Origin: Macrostomum lignano
Taxonomy: Eukaryota
Direction of reading: 5' to 3'
Assembly: GCA_002269645.1 (NCBI GenBank)
Contig: NIVC01000694.1
Location: 372,001-436,000, forward strand
DNA: 64,000 nucleotides
The stretch's first letter is position 1. The number at the start of each line of letters is the position of its first letter. Below, in pieces: positions 20,297 through 38,716 of this stretch. The notes beneath the pieces were generated by a model, which made no database searches, was not told where the DNA came from, and worked only from the letters and a program-made list of their open reading frames with translations. Both the position numbers and the translations under genes were made by a program.

Positions 20297-20675
20297 TACT
20301 ACGTAATGCGTAGATAAGTGTTGATTTTTAGGCAGATTTGACGCTAAAAACGCAAATTATACTACTATCTTAAAAATTAAGTAAGTAGTATATAAAAACG
20401 CTATCCTAAGCGTTATATACACGGCAATATGTAGTCGTATATGTGCATTAATCCATGTACTCATATATGTACATTAATCCCATGTACATTAATCCCTATC
20501 TATCTCAAATGTCCATGTCTTTCCCCAATTCTATATGTACGCAGTACATACATGTGCATTAATCCACTTCTACATGTACAATGTCATCCCCAGACGGCCC
20601 GCGCACGCACACCAAGATTACAACTCGAAACCCTACTACATGTACAGTTGTACAATCTCATCCAAATGAGTCAAC
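20297..20675 (+). repeat. Left terminal inverted repeat (~379 bp)
   Basis: Begins TACTACGTAATGCGTAGATAAGTG. It is the imperfect reverse complement of 38321-38716. Confidence 0.9.
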
Positions 20676-20903
20676 ACCCAAGTTTCACAAAGCACGTTAT
20701 ATGCACATTACCATTTATATGTCAATTATTCAAAACCTACATGTAGCTGATTACACTATATACTACCTTTAGTAGAGTTACAAGTCAAGATTCTATTGAA
20801 AAAGACTGTATTTATATAGTTTCACATTGGAAAAGCGTATATTTTCATTTCAATAATTGAAACAGAGAGCAATAACAGCAAGGAGACAACAGCAAGTTGA
20901 GAC

Positions 20904-21365
20904 TTAATTATAGCCTGTACTACCAAACCCTCCTGCACCGCGAATTGAGTGGCTGTGGGAGGCCTCCTCTTCACCATTCCCTCTATAGAGATCCCTTACA
21001 ACTACGGGAGTAATCAATACACGCTCCAAAACTAATTGAGCGATACGGTAGCCCCGAGTTATGAACCAGTCCGCACTGCCATGATTAAATATCACCACAG
21101 TCAATTCTCCAGTATATATAGTCAGGGTCAATCATGCCGGCGCCCACTTGTATAGACTTGCGCAACGCAGCCCAGACCGGCCGGCAATCCGAGCGTAGGT
21201 CCCATCAGGCGGCTGGATTGAAATTCCGAGAGGCACCTGCGCAACCGACCCGGCCCGGATAAAAGCATCCTCAGAGGCAAAGAGATCGTAGCCAACAGAA
21301 CCGATCGTCTGGCGAGCCGGCGGGCGGGCGCCTTCAGTCAGCAGCGACACCTTTAAAGCAGCCAT
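20904..21365 (-). pseudogene. dut: dUTPase (trimeric type) with two frameshifts
   Basis: Motifs GYDL, GRSGL, (repaired) GAGMIDPDYTGEL, RIAQLV and RGAGGFGSTG. A 1-nt deletion after SGL and a 4-nt TA slippage after DPDY break the frame. Confidence 0.9.
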
Positions 21366-35800: not shown

Positions 35801-38320
35801 ATTGGCCACCCGGTGAACCACCCGACGCCGCAAGTGCTCGATTCTGACGCGCTGGCCAGCTACTTTGGCATTGCCAAAGTGACAGTGCTGCCGCCGTCAA
35901 ACTTGCATATTCCGCTGCTGCCCTACAGGGTGCAAAAGAAGCTCTTTTTTGGGCTTTGCCGCACCTGTATGGAGCAGCAGCAGCAGTGCAGCGGTTGCCA
36001 CCACTCATACGAGGAACGGGCGCTGACTGGCACCTGGGCCATGCCGGAGCTGCGAAAGGCGTTCCAGTTGGGCTACCGGCTGCAGGTGGTGCACGCGCTG
36101 GCCTACTGGACAGAGCAGCGGACCGGCCTGTTCAGTGACTACGTCGGCGCCTTCCTCAAATTGAAGGCCGAGTCGAGCGGCTCCCCCGGCATGTCGGATG
36201 AAGACAAGGCCGCCTACATTGCCGATTTTTACGCAAAGGAGGGCCTCACGCTGGACAAGGTCGAGCCCAACCCAGGACTTCGCTTTGTAGCGAAAATCTT
36301 TTTGAATTCGTAAGTATTCATAAATTGTTTTTTAAACGATTTCTTCTACTAAAAGTAACCAATCTTTTCACAACACAGGCTCTGGGGCAAATTTTGTCAG
36401 CGTGATGACCTCACATCGACCGAAATTGTGTCCAGTTACGAGGACTGGCTCGCCCGGCTGACCGACCCCAACCTCAAATTCAAGGCCTGCGAACCGATTG
36501 GCAGCGAGTTTATGCTGCTGGAGTACCGGCACCGCTACTTTAATCAGCGGCCTTTCCGCTACTCCAACGTGCCAATCGGTGTTTTTACAACCACGCAGGC
36601 CCGGCTGTGCCTGTACGAGGCATTGGAGGGGCTCGGCGAACGGGCCATTTACTGCGACACTGACTCGTAAGTATTGCTCTTACATGTAAATAGTTAGCAT
36701 GTGGAACTAATTATCTCGTTTTTCTCTCTCCCCCACACAGGGTCGTTTACCGGCATTCCGAGGGCCAATGGGAGCCGCCCCATGGCACAAGCCTCGGAAT
36801 GTGGACCGACGAAGTGCCTGCAGGCAGCCGGATGACCGACTTTGTAAGTGGGGGGCCCAAGCTCTACACTTACATTGTCGAGGATGCGGCCGGTGTCCGG
36901 AGCCAGGTCTTGAAATGCAAGGGCATTCGCCTGACTCCGGAGATACGGGAGCGCGGCGACGACCTGCGCAACGCCCTGCTACACGGCGGCTCTCTGCAGC
37001 TGCCGCAGTTTCAGTTCAGGCGCGACAAGGCGTCTTGCACCATCCATACAATCAATATGGACAAGACGTTTCAGCGCGTCCTGACGAAACGTGTGTACGG
37101 GGCCTGCAGCCGGCCTTATGGCTATAAATAATGTGGTCCTTGCGACTAACTAATAAATGTCTTGTTAAATTTGACTGAGTAAAATCTATTTATTGTTGTA
37201 CATATTTTGCATGTGTTGTACTCGCGACTCCCAGGACGGGGCACCTACGAGGGTCCGAGTACGCGGGCCCGTGCTGGCCTGCGTCAGGGCGCGAGTGTCC
37301 GCACGGGACCCTAAGTCTGGGGCGTCAGGACGCTCCCAAGTGGCCGGCACACGCGTAGGGACGCTGTGATGTCGATCACCTTCAGCAGGGCGTCAGGGCG
37401 CACGAGCTGGCGTCGGTGCACAGTGGGCTTACGGTACAGGGTTGCCCCTAGCTGACTAACCTGGCCTATTCCCCCTGAGTCGGCGTCAGGACACACGGAC
37501 TGTCCCTGCTGCAGCTCCCGAAATGACAGAGACAAGGCAGTGACTTACTTTGCTGGCAGTTGTTGCTCCGGGCTCAGGAAGAAGGCCTTTACTTTGTATT
37601 TTTCTTTATTCAACGAGGGGACTTGTATAGCTTGGGCTGTTTACTGGCTGTAGATATAGCTCCGTTGTAGAACCACGTGCCGAGGGGGCAGTCGAGGCGC
37701 GCACCGCTCCAACCCGCCGCGAGCGATGTTAAATAGCACACGCCCGCGGAGGGGGGGGAGGGCCACGTGCTCTCAACACCACCACCCCACCAACCCCCCA
37801 GCCAACCCCTCCCCCCCGGGGGACGGCCACCAAGCCCGCCGCCGGCTCAGCCAATCACTACGCGACTGGCTGGCCGCGGCCAATCGCCACGCAGGGCGAG
37901 CAAAACCTGCCAAGGCTAAAGCCTCTGACGCACAAAAAAGGGGGGAAAACAAACTGCCAACACCTAATTGAGGGCTGACTCAGCCCGCCGGGCTAGGTGC
38001 ATTGGCACCGCAAAAGTGCACAACACAACACATGTTAAATTAGTGAAGAGTTACAGACTACTATACAAATGTACATAAAGCATTTTTGTATTGTATGCGG
38101 CGAAATTGCCAATGTAAAAATCTATTGTACATATTTTGCGTGTCAAACTTGTTTAAAATCATTTATGAAGAGAAAATTATTGAAAAACAATGTAAAATTT
38201 TCTGTATATTCTATTTGCTTGTAATGTTGTACATAAATTATTTCCTGTAATATGCTACTGATTTAATGTAAATATATCTTCTTTGAAAATAGTTTATATA
38301 CGATGTGAGCTGTACAATTA

Positions 38321-38716
38321 GTTGACTCATTTGGATGAGATTGTACAACTGTACATGTAGTAGGGTTTCGAGTTGTAATCTTGGTGCGCGTGCGCGGGCC
38401 GTCTGGGGATTAATTAATGTATGCCACTGTACATGTAGAAGTGGATTAATGCACATGTATGTACGAGCTCGTACTGCGTATAGAATTGGGGATAGACATG
38501 GACAATTGAGATAGATAGGGATTAATGTACATGGAATTAATGTACATATATGAGTACATGGATTAATGTACATATACGACTACATATTGCCATGTATATA
38601 ACGCTTAATTAGCGTTTTTATATACTACTTACTTCATTTTTCAGATAGTAGTATAATTTGCGTTTTTAGCGTCAAATCTGCCTAAAAATCAACACTTATC
38701 TACGCATTACGTAGTA
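38321..38716 (-). repeat. Right terminal inverted repeat (~396 bp)
   Basis: Ends ...CACTTATCTACGCATTACGTAGTA. It is the reverse complement of 20297-20675 with substitutions and small indels. Confidence 0.9.

Follow-up and report, generated by a model that had tools for sequence, protein, structure and literature searches.

Polintons are defined by the joint possession of a polymerase and an integrase. The survey in 10.1101/2023.08.22.554363, in its accessible portion, requires the two genes side by side, and surveys of that kind would miss elements in which the two modules are separated, such as those reported here. We analyzed a 64,000-nucleotide stretch of the Macrostomum lignano genome (GenBank assembly GCA_002269645.1, contig NIVC01000694.1, positions 372,001 to 436,000 of the forward strand; hereafter, the window), in which an element at positions 20298–38715, with the ends ACTACG..CGTAGT, had been noted in a preliminary description as a reduced Polinton-like element. 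We consider, with a probability of roughly three in four, that this element is a damaged copy of a Polinton segment with polymerase only (termed REP), which together with a separate integrase/virion segment (termed VIR) makes up a single bipartite Polinton, each half supplying what the other lacks.

Like Polintons/Mavericks (adintoviruses), with their pPolB2-like polymerase, REP and VIR between them have a protein-primed DNA polymerase B (pPolB), an rve integrase (INT), a major capsid protein (MCP) with a double jelly roll, a minor capsid protein (mCP), a protease (PRO), a packaging ATPase, terminal inverted repeats (TIRs) and a 6-bp target site duplication (TSD). Their summed length of ∼20 kb falls within the 12.7–24.6 kb of intact vertebrate Mavericks given in the accessible part of PMC8097293. 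Unlike in Polintons, however, the genes are distributed between two elements that integrate separately, and the ends read ACTAC..GTAGT rather than (AGT)2 or (AG)3 (for Mavericks, the same part of PMC8097293 notes an (AC)3A type in one fish); unlike intact vertebrate elements, which are intronless, REP has an apparently spliced polymerase gene. Taken as a lone Polinton/Maverick, REP has pPolB, TIRs and a 6-bp TSD and lacks an rve integrase, a virion module and (AGT)2/(AG)3 ends, whereas REP and VIR together contain the full Polinton core gene set. Non-autonomous Polintons, such as those without polB in Pieris and those without a capsid, are likewise described, as far as the accessible text goes, as mobile without one module and as keeping their TIRs. 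However, the Pieris elements have complete siblings, whereas none was found for REP and VIR, whose halves are exact complements and are selected in two lineages, and the capsid-less Polintons are described as lacking only MCP, PRO and ATPase, unlike REP.

Complementary gene sets on separate elements with shared termini, as in a segmented virus, are present here in integrated copies. To our knowledge, bidnaviruses and Drosophila Vesanto virus have neither an integrase nor a double-jelly-roll capsid. In the accessible parts of PMC8502044 and PMC8363768, these viruses are described as having segments, pPolB and termini that match across segments, as here, but as single-stranded DNA (ssDNA) and parvovirus-like, with Vesanto segments of 3–6 kb compared with ∼10 kb for REP and VIR; the double-jelly-roll capsid of VIR, which is not parvovirus-like, places the system outside the Bidnaviridae. 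Transpovirons and linear pPolB plasmids resemble REP in being linear replicons that lack a capsid, and transpovirons arose via loss of the structural module (PMC11161782, accessible part), but REP has a Polinton-type pPolB, lies in host DNA between 6-bp TSDs and is served by a dedicated partner that carries REP's own ends. In the literature searched, to which most subscription papers and Repbase did not belong, neither a bipartite Polinton nor these Macrostomum families were the subject of any paper listed, and the accessible part of 10.64898/2026.10.13.758929 holds no passage on segmentation.

A genome search with polB gave 127 matches in two identity groups, REP-A and REP-B, with polymerases that are 63% identical and elements of 9–10.5 kb. 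Nine polymerase-bearing A loci were read at first, and the six of them that have both ends and no large insertion measure 9.5–10.4 kb; six of seven REP-B loci have both TIRs and span 8.7–10.5 kb. The VIR proteins (integrase, virion) were matched in 0 of 13 polymerase-bearing A loci, 0 of 7 B loci and nowhere in the window. Because no sister copy that was read carries INT or capsid genes, the element is not an ordinary deleted copy, one of the outcomes that the preliminary description had considered. The REP polymerases are 30–38% identical to animal and metagenome Polinton-type polymerases and form one clade among the animal ones in a quick tree (support of 100 in the Shimodaira-Hasegawa-like approximate likelihood ratio test). 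Judged from sequence, they are Polinton-type and not plasmid-type. Three introns of the polymerase gene, with GT..AG ends, are skipped in the assembled contigs of runs X9 and X13 (guessed to be RNA) and X18 (guessed to be DNA) and are not skipped in those of DNA run X7, so that polB is probably spliced in the probable RNA runs. Run X18, which bears a different organism label (organism B), holds a spliced family A polB (compared with REP-A locus L067); it may represent a second species or a labeling difference.

The A-type terminus pattern has 207 matches in the genome. We read 20 bounded A-ended elements without a polymerase match, of which 11 are coding and 9 non-coding. In the 11 coding elements (VIR-A), a single strand bears the genes for INT, PZ, a minor capsid protein, MCP, a protease and an ATPase, with three additional open reading frames (ORFs), within 8.3–10.9 kb. 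A genome search with MCP revealed a second group at 88% identity (VIR-B), and all five of its loci that were read contain the same gene block; a polymerase was matched in none of the 16 VIR loci, VIR-B included. The VIR integrase matches rve (PF00665, E 1e-9) and has a chromo-like tail, and the VIR-A MCP is modeled (mean predicted local distance difference test score 78) as a double jelly roll that resembles PBCV-1 Vp54 (E 8e-18) and also virophage capsids. The ATPase, PRO, mCP, PZ and U1 were recognized by motifs and by 23–40% similarity to genes of single-piece relatives, and the labels PZ, PRO and mCP are ones we take over from Polinton gene names on the assumption that they correspond. Pfam, NCBIfam and PDB sequence searches gave no name to PRO, MCP, mCP, PZ or U1–U3, a search of IMG/VR yielded no relative of the VIR MCP, and the PF21738 profile matched canonical Polintons only, missing the VIR capsid. 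The Pox_A32 Pfam profile had no match in the genome, a search that was insensitive because ATPases are plainly present there. VIR-B has an extra ORF (L231:3602–4405, contig C807) that matches Fic domains weakly (best E 1.5e-8, which does not reach the curated cut-offs). Ten B-ended elements without polymerase comprised nine palindromes and one Gypsy carrier; the latter (L220, C558:43421–53420) has B-type ends around two tandem Gypsy-like gag-pol units, with a length of 9.9 kb and a 6-bp TSD, and is possibly retroelement cargo of the same size as the segments.

The two modules were not found together. Facing terminal pairs were drawn from the first 100 listed of 207 (A) and of 216 (B) terminus matches, which makes the census partial; of the 71 pairs (35 A and 36 B), 23 enclose polymerase, 13 MCP, 35 neither and none both. 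Further, comparison of 97 polymerase places with 64 MCP/INT places (duplicate fragments dropped; cut-offs of ∼57% identity for polymerase and ∼60% for MCP) gave three pairs on a common contig, lying 48, 166 and 469 kb apart. Neither the 71 pairs nor the 97 × 64 places of this partial census contained an autonomous parent that shares the entire TIR. A direct 6-bp TSD flanks 39 of the 40 elements read with both ends, in all classes. Sizes are similar: the median is 10.2 kb for VIR-A and 9.5 kb for REP-B, REP-A minus nested transposable elements measures 9.5–10.4 kb, and 17 of 20 facing VIR-B end pairs span 10.25–10.69 kb by hand count. This clustering of unrelated contents at 9–10.5 kb suggests a packaging limit, although two segments in one normal-size capsid, or no particles at all, are possible alternatives.

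All four classes (REP-A, REP-B, VIR-A and VIR-B) end in a 31-nt cassette, the variable part of which is common within a lineage and not across lineages. Over nt 8–27, REP and VIR are identical at a fraction of 0.62 (A) and 0.49 (B) within a lineage, compared with 0.28–0.38 across, and the REP-VIR likeness inside one lineage equals that within one class. Each of the 16 VIR elements has its closest REP end within its own lineage, and none of 5000 label shuffles reached the observed gap between within-lineage and across-lineage identity. Consistent with this, the full 31-mer is identical in one REP-B end and one VIR-B end, and alleles of the cassette blocks occur in both REP and VIR. Past nt 31, the TIRs of REP and VIR diverge (identity over nt 32–81 of 0.27 in A and 0.21 in B), and because of this inward difference they are unlike deletion products of one recent parent. 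The end motifs are ACTACG or ACTACT, not (AGT)2 or (AG)3, and the canonical Polintons of this genome begin with AGTAG. Within nt 6–27 of all classes (window 20303–20324), two blocks are seen with many alleles that reassort among copies; despite this reassortment, the alleles are usually the same at both ends of a copy. The VIR-A subterminal motif at nt 32–50 (L191:155–175) matches that of REP-B rather than that of REP-A, a hint that the lineages have common ancestry or have exchanged sequence.

Ratios of nonsynonymous to synonymous divergence (dN/dS) were low for both halves. The polymerase gave 0.07–0.12 in 21 pairs of seven REP-A copies, and the main polB exon of the window gave 0.10–0.13 against REP-A copies. 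Between lineages A and B, the values were 0.10–0.14 for polymerase, 0.03 for MCP, 0.09 for INT and 0.04 for ATPase, with a pS of ∼0.7 for both halves, that is, with synonymous sites near saturation. These ratios indicate that REP and VIR are both under purifying selection, and the selection on MCP, together with the clustering of sizes, lends indirect support to the predicted replication in trans and encapsidation of the segments.

Elements with the same ends and no genes are also present. These are near-perfect palindromes of 6.6–9.6 kb, with arms mostly >99% identical, ends of type A or type B and genuine 6-bp TSDs (for example, on contigs C301, C657 and C903, loci L192, L194 and L195, and on C181, C212 and C303, loci L212–L214). 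Assembly fold-backs were ruled out as their source, since in 17 of 18 the TSDs are direct and the flanks unrelated; the palindrome on C356 was dropped because its flanks are inverted. One palindrome with a true TSD (C816) has a VIR-A end joined to REP-A subterminal sequence. With REP/VIR ends and a size of ∼9 kb, the palindromes look like defective genomes, and they are candidates for snap-back defective genomes or for sources of hairpin RNA.

We return to the window copy itself, a REP-A element. An unoccupied paralogue of its insertion site lies inside the same window (61181–61501) and has one AGGACT only, which fixes the limits of the element and its 6-bp TSD. The TIRs and TSD of the preliminary description thus stand, with the element ending 1 nt inside the ends given there; the 4-bp TSD implied by those ends is ruled out by the empty site at 61218–61223. 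The features of the copy, with strand where assigned, are as follows.

20298..38715 (+): whole element, REP-A replication segment of a likely bipartite Polinton, disrupted copy
20292..20297 (+): left TSD AGGACT, 6 bp
38716..38721 (+): right TSD AGGACT, 6 bp
61218..61223 (+): AGGACT, present once in the unoccupied paralogue, whose flanks are 86% and 91% identical
20298..20675 (+): left TIR, 378 bp
38321..38715 (-): right TIR, 395 bp, 91% identity to left
20298..20328 (+): terminal cassette at the left end, 31 nt, of a type also found on the integrase/virion segment; likely origin and integrase site
38685..38715 (-): right 31-nt terminal cassette, same sequence as left
20904..21365 (-): dUTPase gene, frameshifted in this copy (Pfam PF00692, E 2e-10)
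21690..22610 (-): orphan gene of low complexity with probably two exons and approximate boundaries; no credible family found
23091..23278 (+): stray pPolB 5' exon fragment, a rearrangement scar; 77–82% to sister copies
23450..23760 (-): tandem-PC4 gene, 3' part, lower limit approximate
23761..28258 (-): nested long interspersed nuclear element (LINE) with endonuclease, reverse transcriptase and RNase H, 14-bp TSD, interrupting the PC4 gene
28259..28737 (-): tandem-PC4/PUR-fold gene, 5' part, predicted ssDNA-binding protein
29202..37131 (+): spliced protein-primed DNA polymerase B gene, broken (stop at 34972–34974, two insertions, deletion)
29285..32245 (+): LINE-like RNase H fragment in polB exon 1, 11-bp TSD, with a Tc1/mariner inside at ∼29578–31327
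32382..32849: 119-bp tandem repeat, 3.9 copies, polB intron
33110..33362: insertion of 253 bp in a polB exon, containing a 30-bp inverted repeat; not in sister copies
37223..38068: 846-bp GC-rich insertion, right arm; other fetched loci have its last 38 bp only

This copy is itself disrupted: polB has the in-frame stop and two insertions and is missing ∼1 kb compared with a sister copy, the dUTPase gene has a frameshift, and the LINE interrupts PC4. Pfam identified DNA_pol_B_2 (PF03175) in three frames, PC4 and dUTPase in the element, and reverse transcriptase, endonuclease, RNase H and DDE in the nested elements. The gene content previously read from the letters therefore holds for these three genes. 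The uninterrupted PC4 ORF of a sister copy is modeled as two PC4/PUR-fold repeats (against Pur-alpha, Z 9.9, root-mean-square deviation (rmsd) 4.3, 120 residues aligned; against PC4, Z 6.3, rmsd 1.7, 66 aligned). The orphan gene is likewise present, left unnamed by Pfam, NCBIfam and PDB sequence searches, and its described splicing is probable from its splice-site sequence. The nested transposable elements, put at ∼7.4 kb, measure ∼7.46 kb as the sum of the LINE and of the LINE-like piece with its Tc1, each with its own TSD, and the described lack of integrase and virion genes was confirmed by tblastn with the partner's INT, MCP, mCP, PRO and ATPase, none of which matched the element at E 1e-4. 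The best protein matches of the element are entries labeled Macrostomum lignano.

The dUTPase-orphan-PC4 arm of the window was found in one of nine polymerase-bearing A sisters, with pieces in several other loci; the three genes are a mark of one REP-A subtype, not of the whole family. PC4 is present in five of six complete REP-B copies. In most REP-A copies read (e.g. L067), a non-coding left arm, related to the palindrome sequence, replaces dUTPase, orphan and PC4 and holds the length near 9.5 kb. An orphan ORF of 355–376 codons adjoins PC4 in some REP-B copies (L082 on C493, and C491 and C1158) and has no tblastn match to the orphan of the window. The host region around the element is segmentally duplicated at 93–100% identity (window 9920–14142 with 40300–44370, 18720–19019 with 56496–56795, and 61181–61501) and contains a coiled-coil ORF (18129–19208) and long (TAG)n arrays.

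We propose that any linear molecule with the terminal cassette of the lineage would be copied by the REP pPolB through protein-primed strand displacement, the tandem-PC4 protein coating the displaced strand. By analogy with established Polinton and adenovirus biology, the ends would serve as replication origins. A terminal protein domain in pPolB and a role for repeated end motifs in jumping-back priming are described in the accessible parts of PMC11161782 and PMC8097293, respectively. Pairing of both ends during replication might keep them identical. The VIR integrase would insert any molecule with the lineage's cassette, the VIR ATPase and capsid would package molecules of ∼9–10.5 kb, and the shared cassette would confer lineage specificity. 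The ∼9-kb non-coding palindromes may then be snap-back defective genomes that exploit both REP and VIR. The idea in the preliminary description of a pPolB replicon whose integrase and capsid come from a helper points the right way, but the likely helper is the 10-kb VIR and not an autonomous Polinton; VIR lacks pPolB and would itself depend on REP. More tentatively, and with somewhat less than even odds, the system may be a multipartite double-stranded DNA (dsDNA) virus of an animal, with ∼10-kb segments packaged separately in a size-limited capsid and integrated independently, an exchangeable 31-nt terminal barcode that maintains the pairing of the segments and separates A from B, and capsid-size palindromic parasites.

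Several points weigh against a bipartite Polinton. Complementation and particles are what we infer from integrated copies; these copies and the assembled contigs showed neither particles nor extrachromosomal molecules nor complementation. Because of the fragmented assembly, search counts are lower bounds, and the pairing of terminal matches is partial; five long pairs (C126, C538, C221, C271 and C56) are unread inside, although none has both polymerase and MCP matches. The shuffle test ignores kinship among copies, and the dN/dS pairs are non-independent, some copies being duplicates of one insertion (C3173 and C4472 have the same TSD). Selection is weaker in VIR-A (MCP pN/pS 0.15, INT 0.40), many VIR copies are frameshifted, and the selection reflects ancestors, some of which may have been a full-length virus that escaped notice. 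Finally, the runs with spliced polB are RNA by guess alone, and X18 is guessed to be DNA.

An unlikely explanation, yet the strongest of the alternatives, is that REP and VIR are deletion derivatives, in two non-autonomous classes, of a full-length Polinton in one piece that is absent from the assembly or enters from outside as a virus. Mobile polB-less Polintons with complete siblings are described in Pieris mannii (10.1101/2025.02.07.637071, accessible part), nine Polintons without MCP, PRO and ATPase are reported in the accessible part of PMC4028283, and the incomplete assembly and partial census leave room for such a parent. However, neither the pairs nor the places compared above held a copy with both modules, a recent parent should have left the whole TIR shared rather than 31 terminal nt, and the same split and gene order are found in two lineages near synonymous saturation. 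For a bipartite Polinton, a single split before the divergence of A and B is the simplest account of its origin, with a merger of separate derivatives as the alternative.

Less probable still is that a polymerase-only replicon and a polymerase-less Polinton of separate origin converged on shared ends, which would leave the mechanics and the mutual partnership unchanged. Consistent with such an origin, single-piece elements most closely related to the VIR block have a polymerase that is only 23–30% like that of REP or belongs to the other type, polymerase exchange among Polintons is described in the accessible part of 10.1101/2023.08.22.554363, and introns in the REP polymerase gene stand beside plain ORFs for VIR genes. 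On the other hand, the REP polymerase nests among animal Polinton polymerases in the quick tree, the same U1-PZ-INT-mCP-MCP-PRO block adjoins pPolB in single-piece metagenomic relatives (e.g. L277 and L279), and the A/B divergence is similarly deep in both halves. In 21 metagenome contigs of at least 6.5 kb with a distant MCP, no TIR-bounded segment without polymerase was seen; these contigs are silent on the range of the split because most are partial.

Twenty loci around other capsid and polymerase matches were examined for an autonomous parent. Most of those with both ends read are canonical AG..CT Polintons, and only one (C234) has a clearly related polymerase (31%). At least five distinct full-length canonical families (C67, C2068, C114, C506, C4948 and others) have AGTAG-type ends or full gene sets, and some canonical Polintons are nested in one another (C273). 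That REP is a satellite of these elements, which would supply its integrase and capsid, is very improbable and largely refuted by the lineage-matched VIR ends: although full Polintons are abundant in the genome (73 PF21738 matches) and some have a PC4 gene ∼30% like that of REP, they end in AGTAG..CTACT and not ACTAC..GTAGT, blastn of REP TIRs against the 20 fetched full-Polinton loci gave no match, their INT and MCP are 31–36% identical to those of VIR, and a partner with REP's own ends exists.

If a bipartite Polinton is the correct reading, a two-element split that lasted through the divergence of A and B would represent natural genome segmentation in a lineage of dsDNA viruses. We know of no parallel to such a segmented dsDNA lineage except polydnaviruses. 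Recent copies are present in this laboratory flatworm (TIRs up to 100% identical), and with the apparently spliced polymerase they make it testable whether animal Polintons form particles, and how segmented and defective genomes coexist may likewise be tested by observation.

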